A DNA stretch of 6,405 nt, taken from IMG/VR virus record IMGVR_UViG_3300018479_000131; one strand, given 5' to 3'. Numbering within the stretch: position 1 is the first letter of the stretch; each line of letters begins with the position of its first letter. Position numbers and translations under genes: made by a program. The notes under the pieces were generated by a model. It did no database searches. It was not told the origin of the DNA and saw nothing but the letters and a program-made list of their open reading frames with translations. The DNA comes from a virus. Its lineage: Duplodnaviria; Heunggongvirae; Uroviricota; Caudoviricetes. This document shows positions 1 through 6,405 of the stretch, piece by piece.

Positions 1-20
1 ACACGACGCTCTTCCGATCT
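1..20. other. Illumina adapter remnant (non-biological), probably marking a read or contig end
   Basis: Bases 1-20 read ACACGACGCTCTTCCGATCT, which is the 3' end of the Illumina TruSeq universal adapter / read-1 primer site as I know it. Phage-like sequence begins immediately after. Confidence 0.85.
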
Positions 21-87
21 GAGCAGGATCATTACCGGCAAAAATACGTACTTCCGCACGCTGTTCAGTGATTGTTTTCGTTACCAT
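21..87 (-). CDS. Head decoration protein (lambda gpD-like), N-terminal fragment only; the rest runs off the window and into the adapter
   Basis: Reverse complement of 87..21 translates as MVTKTITEQRAEVRIFAGNDPA. An AGGAGG Shine-Dalgarno lies upstream on the minus strand (revcomp of about 93-104), though the spacing of about 12 nt is long. It sits directly downstream of the gpC-like stop, where lambda has D, and the NDPA motif resembles the N-terminus of lambda gpD as recalled. Only 22 codons are visible. Confidence 0.5.
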
Positions 88-123
88 ATTGTAAAAACCT
101 CCTGTTGATAGTCAGCACTGACT

Positions 124-726
124 TCATGGCATGGCCATGAGCATTTTCACGTCCGCATCACCGTCTGCTGACGTCTGTGGCACGCCACCCTGTACCGCTG
201 CCGGTGAATGGTTCGCCATGAAATGTTCAAACATGGCGGTTGTGGATGCAGAGACCGGTTCTGCCTTACCTGCTCCCGCCGCCAGCACAGCCCGGGCGCT
301 CTCCACAGTCATTCCCGGGCAGGCAGCCAGCTGTTCAGCCTGCGCCTCAGCCCCTTTTGCCTCATCCAGTGCTATGATCTGATCACGGAGTGATGGTCCG
401 GCATCCGCCTGCGGTGAAGCAGCCAGGATCGGGCGGGCTTTTTCCACCGTCATCTCCGGCATCGCCGCCAGCGTTGCCGCCAGTTGTTCACGACCGTTCG
501 CTTCTTCACACGCCATAATGCGATCGGCTTCACTCTGCGTGGATGCCACCGGCTGCTGCGGTGCCGCCGCGGCCAGAATCGCCCGGGCCTGTTCAACGCT
601 CATACCCTGTTGTCCTGCCAGCATCGTGGCAAGCTGTTCACGTCCTTTCGCTTCCTGGCATGTCAGGATCCCCATCACTCGCTGGTTCTCCTGCGCGGCG
701 GCTTCCGTTGCAGTTAATTGCGGCAT
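124..726 (-). CDS. Candidate nested in-frame scaffold protein (Nu3-like) from internal initiation within the gpC gene; the start codon is uncertain
   Basis: The in-frame ATG at 726..724 (Met302 of the gpC-like ORF) is preceded on the minus strand by GAGGAGG about 6 nt upstream (revcomp of 727-740 is TCAGAGGAGGCACT). In lambda, Nu3 is made by in-frame internal initiation inside C. Met231 (939..937) and Met241 (909..907) lie nearer the position of the lambda Nu3 start by alignment but have weaker ribosome-binding sites. Confidence 0.3.
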   Translation of the reverse strand: MPQLTATEAAAQENQRVMGILTCQEAKGREQLATMLAGQQGMSVEQARAILAAAAPQQPVASTQSEADRIMACEEANGREQLAATLAAMPEMTVEKARPILAASPQADAGPSLRDQIIALDEAKGAEAQAEQLAACPGMTVESARAVLAAGAGKAEPVSASTTAMFEHFMANHSPAAVQGGVPQTSADGDADVKMLMAMP

Positions 727-1629
727 AGTGCCTCCTCTGACATTACTGTTCAGCGCCGTGGCCATCACACTGATGGCATCCGACGCATTGATTAATTCAT
801 CCGCCAGCCCGGCCTCAATGCCGGACTGACCTTCAAAAACGGCAGCCTCTGTTCCCGTGACGGCATCAACAGACAGACCGGTATACATCGCCACTTTTTC
901 GGCAAACATCCGGCGCGCCGCATCAATCCGCTGCTGCATGTCCTGGCGAACCTCTGCCGGCAACGCTTCAAACTGATTGCCATCCACCTTGTGCGCCCCT
1001 GAGTAAATCAGCGTGATATCCACACCGGCCTGCGCCAGATGACCGGCATAGCTGACATGGCTCATCATCACGCCAATGGAGCCGATACGGGATGTCTGGG
1101 TAACCAGCCGTCGGGAGCAGGCCGACGCCAGCAGCATGGCTGCAGAACAGGCCGTGTCATTGCACAGTGCCCAGACCGGCTTCTGCTGACGGAGGCGGTA
1201 AATCATGTCAGCGCAGTCAAACGCGCCGGCGGCCTGCCCGCCCGGACTGTCAATGTCCAGCAGTACGCCCCGCACCTGGCTATCCGCCATTGCCTGCTGA
1301 AGACAGGCGACAATGCCGTCATATCCTGTCATTCCGGAAAATGGCCGCATACCACCCAGCCGGTGCACCAGCGTGCCGGTCACCGGCAGTACAGCAATAC
1401 CGTTCACCACCCGGTAAACACGGGCCGGTCGTTTACCTCCGGCCATATACTCGTCCGTTTCAGCCAGCATTCCGGGAGCATCAAGCTGTACCTGTTGTTG
1501 TGGTACCGAAAGACTTGCTGCCCCCATCTCGCGCCCGAGCGCGCAAAAGAAAACCCGCGCATAGGCGGGCTCCAGAAGCAGCGGTTCATTGAATGCTGCG
1601 GCAATAATGTGTGAAAGATTACGTCTCAC
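124..1629 (-). CDS. C: Prohead protease / capsid assembly protein (lambda gpC-like, S49/ClpP-like serine peptidase) with a C-terminal scaffold (Nu3-like) domain
   Basis: 501-aa ORF from the track. The N-terminal ~300 aa align by eye with lambda gpC (e.g. AFNEPLLLEPAYARVFFCAL, NGIAVLPVTGTLV, GMTGYDGI, PGGQAAGAFDCAD, KPVWALCNDTACSAA, SRRLVTQT, GSIGVMM, ITLIYSGAHKVDGN, YTGLSVDAV). A Cys-Ser-Ala motif sits where lambda gpC has its catalytic serine. The C-terminal part is a repeated scaffold-type motif. Confidence 0.93.
   Translation of the reverse strand: MRRNLSHIIAAAFNEPLLLEPAYARVFFCALGREMGAASLSVPQQQVQLDAPGMLAETDEYMAGGKRPARVYRVVNGIAVLPVTGTLVHRLGGMRPFSGMTGYDGIVACLQQAMADSQVRGVLLDIDSPGGQAAGAFDCADMIYRLRQQKPVWALCNDTACSAAMLLASACSRRLVTQTSRIGSIGVMMSHVSYAGHLAQAGVDITLIYSGAHKVDGNQFEALPAEVRQDMQQRIDAARRMFAEKVAMYTGLSVDAVTGTEAAVFEGQSGIEAGLADELINASDAISVMATALNSNVRGGTMPQLTATEAAAQENQRVMGILTCQEAKGREQLATMLAGQQGMSVEQARAILAAAAPQQPVASTQSEADRIMACEEANGREQLAATLAAMPEMTVEKARPILAASPQADAGPSLRDQIIALDEAKGAEAQAEQLAACPGMTVESARAVLAAGAGKAEPVSASTTAMFEHFMANHSPAAVQGGVPQTSADGDADVKMLMAMP
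250..680. repeat. Three tandem, diverged coding repeats (periods about 141 and 150 bp) encoding a triplicated ~47-50 aa scaffold-domain motif within the gpC/Nu3-like gene
   Basis: DNA anchors recur at 281-312 (GCCAGCACAGCCCGGGCG...CAGTCAT), 422-453 (GCCAGGATCGGGCGGGC...CCGTCAT) and 572-603 (GCCAGAATCGCCCGGGC...CGCTCAT). Matching protein repeats are ILTCQEAKGREQLATMLAGQQGMSVEQARAILAAA, IMACEEANGREQLAATLAAMPEMTVEKARPILAAS and IIALDEAKGAEAQAEQLAACPGMTVESARAVLAAG. Confidence 0.85.
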
Positions 1630-3211
1630 GTGGTGTTGTCTCCTCTTCCGGCCTGCGACTCTCCGCTATCTGCTGCTGATACGCCTGCGCTATCCACACC
1701 GGACGTGAGAGTCCGGCTTTTTCCCGCTCTGCAGATTCCCTGACCTGCTGGCGGAAAATGTCCTGATAATCCTCGCCCATCAGCGCCAGCTCTTTCTCAT
1801 ACGTGCTCAGTCCGGCCTCAATGCGCATCACTGATTCCTGGACTTCCTTGAGCCCGTCAATGGCCATTCTTCCGGCACCAATCCACTCTGCCCGTGACCA
1901 GGCTGATCGCGCCTGATAAAAATCAAAACGTGCCCGTGGCGGACGAATAATCCCCCGAAGAAGTGCCTCTTCCAGCCAGCAGGAAAACATCTGCGTGGCC
2001 AGCCGGGCCGCAATAAATTTTCGCCGCCCCATAAAATAGCGCCACGACTCATTGGCGGAGGCGCGGGCACTTGAGTAACTGACCTTCGAGTAGTCACGGG
2101 ACAACTGTTCGTAGGAAACGCCAAGACCGGCGGCGATATACCGCAGCAGCGCCTGTTCAAGCGCAGAAAATCCATTGTCTGAATCCTGCGCGGTCTGCAG
2201 TTTCAGATCATCCCCGGGGAAAAGGTGCGGAATTTTGACACCGCCCAGCGTCACGTGATTCGTGTCATACCAGTTGGAGAACTTCTCCAGAATATTAATA
2301 AGCGGATTATCCTTCTGCCCCTGCGGCGCACCGGCGATATATTCAAAGGCCTTTTCGGTATCAAGTTCACTTTCGATTGTGGCTGCATACATGGCCTTCA
2401 CAATGGCCGACTGAAGCTGTGTTACCTGCAGGGAATCGAGCATCTTCAGCCGCTCCATGACGCTGTAAAACTGATTAGCCCCACGGGTCTGCCCGTCCTC
2501 CACCGGCTCGAAAATATGCAGCATGGCCGGACGCCCGGTGGGAAGTTCACGCGGGATCCGTTCCCATCCTCCACTACCAGAGAACGGAAAATCATCCTCA
2601 CAGATGTGGTACGCAACGGCACGGCCATATCGATCGACCTCCACACCGGCCCGCAGAAAACGGTTCCCCATACCGTGTCCTGGCGTGTCCACCCGTTTCG
2701 GACTCACGGCTTTAAAACGCGTACGGAATAACTGCGTGGTTTCCGTATCCCAGACCGGCTGCACAAATATTTCGCCGTTAAACGCATGAACGCCCACACC
2801 TTCACGGATAAATTCCGTGAAGGTGCGTTTTCCTTCCACGTCGATCTCGCCAAACATCCCTTCGGCGTATTCCGACCAGGCCGCCTCCACCTCATCGACA
2901 AAGCTTTTTGCTGCAGTCTCCCGCATCCCCAGCCAGCGCCAGTTCGGACGGTAGCTGATCAGAAACATATGCCCGACAATGTGATCTTTATGCAGGGCCA
3001 CCGCATTAGCCGCTATTCCGTTATTGCGCACCAGATCATCTGCCCGGGCATTCCCCAGACGCAACGCGGGCAGCAGGGCCGCATCGGCACTCTGCGCCGG
3101 TGGCAACCACTCCGCCATTTGCCCGCCAAATCCTGCGCCGCCCCCGTTGTAGCTGAGACTCTCACGAAGCGGAACGCCGTTCACATCAATCAGGACAGGC
3201 GTTAGTTTCAT
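1619..3211 (-). CDS. B: Portal protein (lambda gpB-like)
   Basis: 530-aa ORF. Motifs shared with lambda gpB as recalled include GGGAGFGGQ, DAALLP, GNARADDLVRNNG, HAFNGEIFVQ, WDT, LFRTRFKAVSPKR, EPVEDGQTRGAN, FYSVME, KMLDSLQ, TQLQSAIVKAMYAATIESELDT, LLRYIAAGLGVSYEQLSRDY, YSSARASANESW, FMGRRKF, WSRAEWIGAGRMAIDGLKEVQE and IEAGLSTYEKE. Its start overlaps the gpW stop by 4 nt (ATGA), and its 3' end overlaps the gpC start by 11 nt. Confidence 0.95.
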   Translation of the reverse strand: MKLTPVLIDVNGVPLRESLSYNGGGAGFGGQMAEWLPPAQSADAALLPALRLGNARADDLVRNNGIAANAVALHKDHIVGHMFLISYRPNWRWLGMRETAAKSFVDEVEAAWSEYAEGMFGEIDVEGKRTFTEFIREGVGVHAFNGEIFVQPVWDTETTQLFRTRFKAVSPKRVDTPGHGMGNRFLRAGVEVDRYGRAVAYHICEDDFPFSGSGGWERIPRELPTGRPAMLHIFEPVEDGQTRGANQFYSVMERLKMLDSLQVTQLQSAIVKAMYAATIESELDTEKAFEYIAGAPQGQKDNPLINILEKFSNWYDTNHVTLGGVKIPHLFPGDDLKLQTAQDSDNGFSALEQALLRYIAAGLGVSYEQLSRDYSKVSYSSARASANESWRYFMGRRKFIAARLATQMFSCWLEEALLRGIIRPPRARFDFYQARSAWSRAEWIGAGRMAIDGLKEVQESVMRIEAGLSTYEKELALMGEDYQDIFRQQVRESAEREKAGLSRPVWIAQAYQQQIAESRRPEEETTPRET

Positions 3212-3414: not shown

Positions 3415-5326
3415 TCACTCCTCCGGACAGCTTCGCTGCCAGTTCTTTAAGGGTTGGCCGGGTCGTCTCTTCTTCCCGGGATTTTGCCAGTACAGCCAGA
3501 TCAAGCTGCCAGCGCTGCACGGACACACGTAATGCCGCGTAGGCATACACCAGGCAGTCCAGCGCTTCGTTACGCCGCTTTTTGTTATCCCACAGCAGAC
3601 GCATCTTTCCTTTTTCCCACTTCTCCACAAGCTCTTCCGCAACCAGTTGCTGCGCCTCTGTCTGCGAAAAAATCTCCGGATCATCAGGAAAACGGATGGC
3701 ATACGACGTGGCTTCATCCGCAGGCGTGGGATCGGCTTTCATACGGGCATAGAGAATCTCTTTTGCGGTGTCCGTCCCCACTTCACACAGATACACGCCC
3801 CGCTGATTGCGGGTTTTTGGCATGGTGATCACCGGCTTGCCATAGACAGATGCGCCTTTTACCGGCAGCACCCGGAAAACACCGTGTTTTTTTGACCTCT
3901 GATAAACGATTTCGCCATCGATCCCCCCGATGTCCCAGCAGACACGGGAAATGGTCATTTCGGTTCCGTCTGCATGACGGTATTTTTTGTTGATCGCCGC
4001 ATCCACACGTAACAGCGTCTCTTCCTCATCGGGACGCCCCATAATGATGATTTTATCCACCAGAAAGGCTTCCTCTCCCGGAGCCCATCCCCAGACATAC
4101 ATCTCAAAACGGTTTCGCTGCGAGTCAATGCCCGCCGTCAGATAAACCACCCGGGCAGGCACTGCCGCCGTGTAACGCACAACCTTATCCATCAGTACCT
4201 GGTGATCGAGTTTTTCGCCCACGGCCTCTTCCCAGGTCTCGCCCAGCGTGGTGTTCACAAAGGTTTTCAGGCCGTTGGGATCTTTCAGTGCATCCAGCCA
4301 GTCATAGACAATCTGTACCCAGGTGGTGAACGGACTGTACGCCGTCCAGATATGGAACGTGATGGAGCGCGGCGGCGGAATTTCATTACCCGCAGCGCTG
4401 AAAAACATCAGACCGTCACGGGTCCACATGCCCGTGTTTTCACAAATCCACCGCCCGTTGCTCTGGTCCAGTTCAGACTGATGGATCACGCAGCCATGAT
4501 GTTCACAGAGGTAGAAAACACTTTCGGGACTGTCCTTCTCCCATTTAAGCCCAAAAGGCGTGGACTCATCGCCAAATTTCAGATACTGCTCCTCCCCACA
4601 GTGCGGGCAGGGCACATAAAAACGCATGAAATGCGCCGACTCGTTGGCCGCTTTTTCGATCTGGCAGGAGCCTTTTATTTTAGGCGTCGAGCCGCGAATG
4701 GATTTTGGCCATACAGAGCCCTCAATACGCTTATCCCCCAGCAGGGTTGGCGAGCCCTCTTTTTCAACATCCGGCTCGAACGAGGAAAGTTCGTCATAGC
4801 AGACCACATCCACGGATTTTTCACGGTAGTTTTTGGCGGCAGCACCACCCAGGCACCAAAAACCCACACGGGAAGTGAATCTTTTTAATGTCAGCGTGTT
4901 ATCCCGGTGCTTACGTCCCAGCCAGGGGGAAAGAATTTTCAGACAGGGAACATCCCGTAATGTTGACTCCACATGAGACTTCATAAAATCTTCAGCGGCA
5001 GAATCCGTAGGCTGAAACAGAAGACTGTTACGGTTTTTATGCTCAATAAAGTAACCAATAACGCCCATCAGCATTTTGGTGTAACCGACTCGAGCTGATT
5101 TTATAAGATTAATCGTGCGGATCCGGTCATTACCCATGCAGTTCATTATTGCCACCTGAAATGGCAACGTCTTCCACCGCCCAGCAAGATAAGAGGACTC
5201 CGGGGGCAAATAATAATTTTGATCGGCCCATTCAACGGTGGTTACAGGCAGTGGGCGTAAAAGCCCACGAAGTGCCACTCCACAAACAACAGCAAAGTTA
5301 TTTAGCTGCTTCTCTGAGGTATTCAT
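3398..5326 (-). CDS. A: Terminase large subunit (lambda gpA-like)
   Basis: 642 aa against 641 in lambda gpA. Long colinear matches by eye include [192 protein letters not shown] and [13 protein letters not shown]. Confidence 0.96.
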
Positions 5327-5846
5327 CCAGCATCTCCGGTAACTTCTCTGCCGTTGATGCGCATCGGTTTGCCGCCTTTGCTATATCGGTTTTCAGGAAA
5401 TCAAGCATAGCGGGCGTCAGTGCCGAAAACTGTCTCTGCATGGACAATGGAATGGAGTCAAGAATGGCAGAGATCTCCTGTGCCAGTCTTCCCAGAGCAA
5501 AAAGGCAAAACCCTGTATCAATGACCTGCCCACTGTCGCGGGCATTTTTCAGTTCCTGTGCATCTGCCTGTGCCTTCGTCAGTCGGTAACGTTCGTAATC
5601 AATGGTGCCGGGCTGAAGGTCTGATTCGCTGGCAGCCCTCAAATCCTCGACCTCTTTACGGAGTTTTTCGTTTTCAATATCAGCTTCGCGCTGCGCATAC
5701 CACTGAATGGCAGCAGTTGTATCAAAAACTGATTCAGTCCCTTTCCCTCCACCAGAAACTAGTGGTAACCCCTGACTCTGCCAGGCGGTGATGGTCCTGA
5801 CATCAACGCCAAAAATATCGGCCAGTTTTTTCTTATTGACGTTCAT
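5298..5846 (-). CDS. nu1: Terminase small subunit (lambda Nu1-like)
   Basis: 182 aa against 181 in lambda Nu1. It has an N-terminal helix-turn-helix-like segment ([24 protein letters not shown]) and a GGGKGTES motif (nt 5730-5753, minus strand), and is colinear with lambda Nu1 as recalled ([52 protein letters not shown]). It overlaps the gpA-like start by 29 nt and lies immediately downstream of cos. Confidence 0.95.
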
Positions 5847-5865
5847 ACACTCATCCGGAAACCAG

Positions 5866-5918
5866 AAAGGATCTGAAAATGGCGTTTTCGGACAAAAACA
5901 GCCTTTGTCAGATCCTTT
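5866..5918. promoter_or_regulatory. Perfect 11-bp inverted repeat with a 31-bp spacer inside cosB; candidate paired binding sites (R-site-like) for the small terminase subunit
   Basis: AAAGGATCTGA at 5866-5876 and TCAGATCCTTT at 5908-5918 are exact reverse complements. The element lies 20-70 bp upstream of the Nu1 start, where lambda carries the inverted R2/R1-type elements. Confidence 0.55.
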
Positions 5919-5941
5919 TATATTTTTAATATTCTATTGAT

Positions 5942-5954
5942 AATCAATCAGTTA
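5942..5954. promoter_or_regulatory. IHF binding-site consensus match (candidate I1-like site of cosB)
   Basis: AATCAATCAGTTA matches the IHF consensus WATCAANNNNTTR exactly. It is embedded in an AT-rich tract between the R3-like element and the inverted repeat, as the IHF site I1 is in lambda cosB. Confidence 0.5.
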
Positions 5955-6015
5955 AAAAGAAGAAGAACGGATCTACTTTTTCCCGAAAAATTTTCATAAA
6001 TAGTGAAAACGCGCG

Positions 6016-6027
6016 AGGTCGCCGCCC
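6016..6027. other. cosN: the 12-bp lambda-type cohesive-end sequence (terminase nicking site)
   Basis: 6016-6027 reads AGGTCGCCGCCC, the exact reverse complement of the lambda cohesive end GGGCGGCGACCT, and is flanked on both sides by near-lambda-identical sequence. Confidence 0.9.
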
Positions 6028-6058
6028 CGTAACCTGTCGGATCGCCGGAAAGGACCCG
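6028..6058. promoter_or_regulatory. cosQ-containing segment (right-end side of cos)
   Basis: CGTAACCTGTCGGATCGCCGGAAAGGACCCG is the reverse complement of the last ~31 bp of the lambda genome right end (…CGGGTCCTTTCCGGTGATCCGACAGGTTACG as recalled), with a single mismatch. Confidence 0.8.
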
Positions 6059-6062
6059 AAAA

Positions 6063-6079
6063 ATGATAATAATTATCAT
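6063..6079. promoter_or_regulatory. AT-rich palindrome ATGATAAT-A-ATTATCAT; candidate operator in the intergenic region upstream of the plus-strand small gene
   Basis: 8-bp arms are exact reverse complements around a single central base. A related palindrome ATAAT-CA-ATTAT lies at 6122-6133, and GCATC-containing direct repeats lie at 6077-6083 and 6097-6103. Confidence 0.35.
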
Positions 6080-6226
6080 CTACATATCACAACGTGCATC
6101 TACGCCATCAAACCACGTCAAATAATCAATTATGACGCAGGTATCGTATTAATTGATCTGCATCAACTTAACGTAAAAACAACTTCAGACAATACAAATC
6201 AGCAACACTGAATACGGGGCAACCTC

Positions 6227-6405
6227 ATGTCAACTAAGAACAGAACCCGCAGAACAACAACCCGCAACATCCGCTTTCCTAACCAAATGATTGAACAAAT
6301 TAACATCGCTCTTGAGCAAAAAGGGTCTGGGAATTTCTCAGCCTGGGTCATTGAAGCCTGCCGTCGGAGACTAACGTCAGAAAAGAGAGCATATACATCA
6401 ATCCA
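6227..6405 (+). CDS. Small basic protein, 3'-truncated at the window end; resembles the DUF3950 YlcI/YnfO family of lambdoid prophages; possible ribbon-helix-helix DNA-binding fold
   Basis: ATG at 6227 opens a frame with no stop to the window end, translating as MSTKNRTRRTTTRNIRFPNQMIEQINIALEQKGSGNFSAWVIEACRRRLTSEKRAYTSI. The six-frame track omits it because it has no stop. The pattern is basic N-terminus, short beta-like strand (NIRFP), helix, Gly turn, helix. In E. coli K-12 prophages, ylcI and ynfO lie next to Nu1 homologues (noh genes) as I recall. The ribosome-binding site is weak (GGGG about 8 nt upstream). Confidence 0.55.
   Translation, partial: MSTKNRTRRTTTRNIRFPNQMIEQINIALEQKGSGNFSAWVIEACRRRLTSEKRAYTSI

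Follow-up and report, generated by a model that had tools for sequence, protein, structure and literature searches.

The internal ribosome-binding site and ATG in a lambdoid head maturation protease gene coincide with the start annotated for gene 6 of phage 21

Introduction

Scaffolding genes nested within the genes of head maturation proteases are textbook knowledge for lambdoid phages, the closest described cases being lambda C/Nu3 and genes 5 and 6 of phage 21 (M81255.1, 'Bacteriophage 21 head gene operon'; OL657228.1, complete genome). The present analysis concerns a 6,405-nt stretch of viral DNA (Caudoviricetes; IMG/VR record IMGVR_UViG_3300018479_000131), referred to below as the window, and in particular a Shine-Dalgarno (SD) motif, GAGGAGG, followed by an in-frame ATG (Met302) inside its gpC-like gene, the counterpart of phage 21 gene 5. 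A preliminary description of the window, made from the letters alone, had proposed that translation may be initiated at this internal site. GenBank annotates gene 6 of phage 21 at exactly these bases, and the proposal is therefore correct but not new; the feature is the annotated, already known start of that gene.

Comparable arrangements are found in other systems. In herpesviruses, UL26 and UL26.5 provide a protease and a scaffold with a common C-terminus, and the protease enters the procapsid alongside an excess of free scaffold. This nested arrangement is mentioned in PMC4498786. UL26.5 is transcribed as an mRNA of its own from an internal promoter, whereas gene 6 would be translated from a ribosome-binding site within a polycistronic mRNA, and the protease folds are unrelated (herpesvirus assemblin versus an S49/ClpP-like fold here). 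Two in-frame products of a single gene, formed by alternative translation initiation, are also known for the lambda S105/S107 holin-antiholin pair (PMC3224144). The S105 and S107 starts are separated by two codons and give rise to isoforms that antagonize each other, whereas 301 codons lie between the two starts considered here and an entire enzymatic domain is missing from the short form.

Results and Discussion

Correspondence with phage 21 genes 5 and 6

A megablast search with the first 1700 nt of the window returned 27 phage records, the best matches being PhiR57_1 and ev017 (99.0-99.1% identity), followed by phage 21 (98.9%; both M81255.1 and OL657228.1). The phage 21 match extends over 1681 nt and is free of mismatches in the 101 nt that surround the site. 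Genes 5 and 6 of phage 21 represent the same locus as the window: about 1% of the positions differ, none of them relevant, and the gene 6 coding sequence, its ribosome-binding site and the Tri boxes correspond base for base.

In M81255.1, gene 5 (501 aa) contains a nested coding sequence for gene 6 (5475-6077), together with a ribosome-binding site at 5464-5468. Upon conversion (window = 2001 - M81255.1 locus position), these features fall at 726-124 and 737-733, respectively. The same nested coding sequence appears in OL657228.1 under the name 'scaffolding protein', and its ribosome-binding site is given there at 736-732 of the window. Read on the minus strand, the region around the site is aatgtcaGAGGAGGcactATGccgcaa. 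The ATG at 726-724 is in frame with the 501-aa open reading frame (ORF; 1629..124), and the 603 nt from this codon to the stop encode 200 aa. The preliminary description had anticipated that initiation at Met302 would give a 200-aa, scaffold-only protein made up of the linker and three repeats, and this product matches gene 6 as annotated in both records; the repeats correspond to the three Tri boxes of M81255.1, each a copy of the scaffold motif (265-659, minus strand).

The 200-aa product was matched by PHROG 8399, 'head scaffolding protein' (E=7e-35, in three stretches), and by PHROG 8940 (E=2e-30). A sequence search of the PDB with the same product gave nothing at E <= 1, and no Pfam family covers the last 200 residues (the scaffold part) of the 501-aa protein.

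Taken together with the comparative evidence described below, we assign a probability of roughly 0.9 to the interpretation that translation of gene 6 of phage 21, which is homologous to lambda Nu3, is initiated at GAGGAGG-4 nt-ATG (737-724, minus strand). The locus displays the features of a nested scaffold gene of the lambda C/Nu3 type, namely an in-frame start after the protease domain, an SD motif, conservation of the site, homology to Nu3 and location in the head operon. From the sequence we infer that ribosomes actually initiate at Met302 in phage 21.

Strength of the internal SD motif

The GAGGAGG motif is encoded by codons Arg298-Gly299-Gly300 of gene 5 (aGA GGA GGc). Both the motif and the in-frame ATG of Met302 were correctly located in the preliminary description; the spacer, given there as about 6 nt, is in fact 4 nt when counted from the last G of the motif (5 nt after the GGAG core, and 7 nt in the GAGG register). 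Anti-SD energies were calculated for the duplex of the 16S rRNA 3' end (ACCUCCUUA) with positions -20..-4 of each start, and all 46 in-frame ATG, GTG and TTG codons of gene 5 were scored. With -12.0 kcal/mol, Met302 was the best of these 46 starts. The GTG of gene 5 itself reached -9.1, Met231 -6.5 and Met241 -3.1 kcal/mol, in agreement with the earlier statement that this is the strongest SD motif of the gene, above those at Met231 and Met241. It is also the strongest among the seven gene starts in the window, including those of the decoration gene (-11.0 kcal/mol) and the W-like gene (-9.5 kcal/mol).

Several observations weigh against the assignment of the site to a gene start or lend it no support. 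For GAGGAGG, 0.78 occurrences per window are expected, and at least one copy occurred in 107 of 200 shuffled sequences; the pattern GGAGG-N3-9-ATG was seen four times in the window versus 1.98 expected. The mRNA around the SD motif and ATG is not unusually open, since its unpaired probability lies at the 50th percentile of the gene in sliding-window partition-function folding, and the 111-nt fold at the site is unremarkable (z = -0.6). In addition, the ribosome-binding site in M81255.1 carries the label 'putative', and lambda-type records place nu3 elsewhere, either at 5132 or at the equivalent of 5023. The motif in a single window is not beyond chance, and it gains significance solely when relatives are compared.

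A search of window positions 1-1700 for an internal promoter or terminator that might serve a gene 6 transcript of its own yielded nothing above chance level, and Rfam revealed no RNA family anywhere in the window.

Conservation of the site among homologues

For the comparison, 160 related loci were fetched, their gpC-like genes were extracted and the proteins were aligned. The set was then reduced to 54 sequences with less than 90% identity to each other and 36-100% identity to the gene 5 product (gp5). The 54 homologues are phylogenetically related; at 36-60% protein identity, their synonymous sites are saturated.

The Met302 column of the alignment contains an ATG in 50 of the 54 sequences (53 of 54 within two residues), with a mean anti-SD energy of -7.7 kcal/mol. 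Outside this column and the three upstream candidates treated in the next section, the Met columns of gp5 or lambda gpC show varying occurrence of ATG, and their mean anti-SD energies range from +2.2 to -3.9 kcal/mol. In 45 of 53 homologues the ATG is preceded by GGAG at a distance of 5-11 nt, which is exactly 5 nt in 35 of them; in 30 of the 53, the SD motif at Met302 is the top-ranked internal SD motif of the whole gene. Where the GGAG is in frame, the Gly codon is GGA in every case (44/44), versus 11.5% among 2001 other Gly codons of the same genes. Moreover, among the third-codon positions from -30 to +15, conservation is highest for the A at -7 (72%, 0.74 bits versus <=0.47 bits for the others). 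Synonymous-site conservation upstream of Met302, which the preliminary description had put forward as the mark of selection for the site, is thus clearly present. Given that the synonymous sites are saturated at 36-60% identity, the retention of GGA reflects selection on the RNA sequence, and the alignment shows that the SD motif and ATG at Met302 are under nucleotide-level selection throughout the family.

The GGAGG might have been kept for some other reason, such as a pause following the protease domain or a Gly-Gly linker or cleavage site, the ATG being merely a conserved Met. The motif does lie at a domain boundary, a plausible site for a flexible linker made of Gly-Gly or for a folding pause, and Gly-Gly is common among the enterobacterial members. 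The second residue, however, is not fixed as Gly (Gly in 15, Ala in 13, Val in 6 and Glu in 1), while its codon always starts with G, and the first Gly is always encoded by GGA. A variable second residue next to an invariant GGA therefore points to selection on the RNA and not on the peptide. Furthermore, the pause model gives no account of the ATG at a fixed distance in so many of the homologues, and this fixed spacing argues for translation initiation rather than a pause site. We consider such a peptide-level or pausing role extremely improbable as the reason for conservation.

The preliminary description had also raised the prospect of two nested products. A scan of every Met column in the alignment disclosed no second column that combines conservation with an SD motif, which speaks against this suggestion. 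Within the sequence of the window, an AGGAG (-7.4 kcal/mol) lies upstream of GTG318/ATG319. It is very unlikely that more than one nested product is made, whether a minor longer one from Met231 or Met241 or a shorter one from GTG318/ATG319, or that the SD motif also tunes the elongation of gp5 and thereby sets the protease-to-scaffold ratio.

The nested start in lambda and its relatives

The gp5 protein and lambda gpC are 58% identical. In the alignment, Met302 falls on the Met of the lambda sequence ...LSGGRMTKE..., encoded by the ATG at nt 5342 (DNA tcAGGAGGgcgaATG / AGGAGGgcgaATG), and the lambda context 'GGRM' cited in the preliminary description is accurate, the residues being S-G-G-R-M. 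At 5342, as at Met302, AGGAGG is followed after 4 nt by an in-frame ATG located just past the protease domain. The order of the operon is alike (Nu1-A-W-B-C/Nu3-D in lambda), and the lambda scaffold motif, ENxR[VI]MGIL.C.EA.GRE...GM[ST]V..AR.IL, is homologous to that of gene 6. The products differ in length and repeat number, with 200 aa and three repeats here versus 131 aa and a single one in the lambda product from 5342. In lambda, the nested start is directly followed by a 36-residue insertion that has no counterpart in this phage. The 131-position 'head scaffolding protein' family, PHROG 8399, covers the full length of the lambda protein initiated at 5342, and the exact lambda 131-aa sequence has been called as a gene on 165 contigs. 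The suggestion that the nested start of this phage may differ from that of lambda is accordingly not upheld, inasmuch as the widely conserved Met302 column is the column of the lambda 5342 ATG and the SD arrangement is the same.

The annotated nu3 genes of lambda-type phages begin elsewhere. In both RefSeq and GenBank, lambda nu3 starts at 5132 (201 aa), a position that aligns between Met231 and Met241; the earlier claim that the region of these two residues corresponds to the lambda Nu3 start thus agrees with the database start. The Met at 5132 itself aligns with Ile235 of gp5, and this start codon is absent in the present phage. The records of HK630 and phage 434 (OL657226.1) copy the 5132 start (201 aa), and the PHROGs contain a 201-position family (8940) in addition to the 131-position family. 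The 5131 coding sequence in the phage 434 record bears a note that begins 'real Nu3 start ...' (only these opening words are considered here). Lambda imm21 (OM418625.1) uses another nu3 start, which gives 233 aa and is the equivalent of 5023.

Identical lambda-type DNA (lambda NC_001416 4300-6200, phage 434, lambda imm21 and HK630) therefore carries different annotated nu3 starts, neither of which is the conserved 5342.

According to these records, the nested scaffold of the present phage could start upstream, near Met231 or Met241, Met302 being either unused or the source of a minor second product, and Met231 is indeed preceded by a modest AGAGG (-6.5 kcal/mol). ATG is, however, rare or irregular in the three columns concerned, with 6/54 for lambda 5132, 2/54 for Met231 and 23/54 for Met241, and their mean anti-SD energies (-2.3, -3.8 and -2.0 kcal/mol, respectively) are no better than those of other Met columns of the gene. 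All three positions, moreover, are situated within the S49 domain (residues 146-293), and the lambda-type records are mutually inconsistent, the opening of the phage 434 note included. An upstream start is thus very unlikely, and, as judged from the alignment, the RefSeq lambda nu3 start (5132) is not the conserved start of the family.

With respect to the lambda protein, Ziegelhoffer et al. are said to have sequenced the N-terminus of purified gpNu3 in 1992 and reportedly arrived at a start at 5342. The UniProt entry for gpC presumably describes Nu3 as an alternative-initiation isoform without the first 308 residues, and we take lambda gpNu3 from nt 5342 to be a protein of ~13.4 kDa and 131 aa. 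A literature search found no statement of an experimentally determined N-terminus for lambda gpNu3 or phage 21 gp6.

Proposed expression of protease and scaffold

On the assumption that gene 6 starts at Met302, ribosomes would initiate independently at 726-724 on a long, late polycistronic mRNA, inside and in frame with gene 5. The product would be a 200-aa scaffolding protein whose sequence is identical to the last 200 residues of gp5. Full-length gp5 would then be a low-abundance protease with a scaffold tail, translated from a GTG with a weaker SD motif and coupled to the portal stop, and the free scaffold would be the abundant product, translated from an ATG with the strongest SD motif in the window. 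The weaker GTG start of the protease (-9.1 kcal/mol) versus the ATG start of the scaffold (-12.0 kcal/mol) fits a requirement for many scaffold copies per protease, and the SD motif of gene 6 is comparable to that of the high-copy decoration protein gene (-11.0 kcal/mol). The scaffold:protease stoichiometry would thus probably favor the scaffold. By analogy with the biology of lambda C/Nu3 known from the literature, we infer that protease and scaffold co-assemble: the common C-terminal domain would let the protease join the scaffold in the procapsid, and both would be removed later.

Free scaffold could conceivably originate mainly from proteolytic cleavage of gp5 in the linker, in a manner similar to P2 gpO, with internal initiation playing a minor part. 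Self-processing protease-scaffold fusions are known in other phages, such as P2 gpO, and gp5 is likewise a protease fused to a scaffold domain. Proteolysis alone, however, does not explain the family-wide, nucleotide-level conservation of the SD motif and ATG, and the GTG of gene 5, with its weaker SD motif, would have to supply every copy of the scaffold. Cleavage is for these reasons a most improbable main source of the scaffold, and initiation at the gene 6 ATG is preferred.

Gene content of the window

The long ORFs of the window are all on the minus strand, and their layout is that of a lambda-type head operon (Table 1). Genes 5 and 6 follow the two terminase subunits, the W-like gene and the portal gene, and precede shp/D, which is the head-operon placement of C/Nu3-type genes. 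PHROG 53, 'head maturation protease', matches gp5 with E=1e-228, and Pfam PF01343 matches its residues 146-293 with E=3.7e-35 (121.6 bits versus a gathering cut-off of 24.9). Met302 follows the end of the S49 domain at a distance of nine residues.

At 1619-1629 on the minus strand, gene 5 starts with a GTG that overlaps the stop of the portal gene (GTGAGACGTAA / cacGTGAGACGTAA), an arrangement typical of translational coupling between portal and protease.

Table 1. Positions of genes, domains, translation signals, repeats and pattern matches in the 6,405-nt window
Feature	Position	Strand	Basis
Small terminase	5846-5298	minus	ORF list
Large terminase	5326-3398	minus	ORF list
W-like gene	3414-3208	minus	ORF list
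Portal gene	3211-1619	minus	ORF list
Ribosome-binding site of gene 5 itself, GAGGAG (-9.1 kcal/mol), with GTG start	1639..1644	minus	annotated in M81255.1
Gene 5, gpC-like head maturation protease/scaffold fusion, 501 aa	124..1629	minus	ORF; M81255.1 and OL657228.1 annotation
Peptidase S49 domain of gp5, residues 146-293	751..1194	minus	Pfam PF01343
SD motif of nested gene 6, GAGGAGG (core AGGAGG 731-736)	731..737	minus	sequence, annotation, conservation
ATG start of nested gene 6 (Met302 of gp5)	724..726	minus	sequence and annotated CDS (coding sequence) start
Nested gene 6, 200-aa scaffolding protein (lambda Nu3 homologue), in frame with gp5, same C-terminus	124..726	minus	AAA32344.1, UMO75421.1
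Tri1 box, first repeat in gene 6	556..659	minus	repeat_region in M81255.1
Tri box, second repeat in gene 6	409..519	minus	repeat_region in M81255.1
Tri3 box, third repeat in gene 6	265..378	minus	repeat_region in M81255.1
Decoration-protein gene (shp/D), start only in window	3' of gene 5	minus	ORF list
TTGYN6TTGY match	708-721	plus	pattern match
TTGYN6TTGY match	474-487	plus	pattern match
TTGYN6TTGY match	5282-5295	minus	pattern match
TTGYN6TTGY match	6179-6192	minus	pattern match
TTGYN6TTGY match	6254-6267	minus	pattern match

Consequences for annotation

For discovery, the finding means little, as nested protease/scaffold genes in lambdoid phages are long familiar and both the start and the ribosome-binding site are already present in GenBank. 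Its value lies in annotation. Of 5426 complete E. coli genomes, 1870 carry the module (window 124-1000) at >=90% identity, with up to five copies each, and the 15 RefSeq E. coli records listed carry the annotation 'S49 family peptidase' only, without a nested scaffold gene. In the lambda-type records, at least two nu3 starts have been assigned to the same DNA, neither of them conserved. From the figures given above, the nested start can be located by a simple rule throughout the gpC family: an ATG in the Met302 column (50/54), with GGAG 5 nt upstream and its Gly encoded by GGA (44/44).

Additional sequence features

A hypervariable patch occupies positions 737-769 on the minus strand (nt 860-892 of gene 5), immediately upstream of the SD core. 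In close relatives the patch has two alleles, ...NSNVR-GG (aacagtaatgtcaGAGGAGG) or ...NTHDT-GG (aacacacatgatacAGGAGG), and the AGGAGG core and ATG are unaltered in both. In one locus (L094) that is 99% identical to the window overall, nine of the 11 differences fall inside this 33-nt patch, which might represent a short mosaic or gene-conversion tract within the linker between protease and scaffold.

The consensus for CII binding, TTGYN6TTGY, is matched five times in the window versus 1.16 expected, a number reached in one of 200 shuffles. The match at 708-721 is perfect (TTGCAGTTAATTGC) and lies antisense to codons 3-7 of gene 6; this CII-type sequence is not kept in the more distant homologues. 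OL657228.1 labels the matches at 708-721 and 474-487 as 'transcription factor CII' sites, which are putative and derived from a pattern match.

Finally, the lambda-type C-gene site was also encountered on contigs of unrelated assemblies, including those of Neobacillus, Chromatium, Kitasatospora, Shewanella, Pseudomonas, Oceanobacillus, Leeuwenhoekiella, Akkermansia and Amycolatopsis, among others (loci L014, L016-L022, L024, L037, L038, L040, L041, L050 and L057). The names of several of these lambda-like contigs show a coverage of ~1x or less, and the contigs look like lambda DNA contamination or spike-in and not like real prophages.

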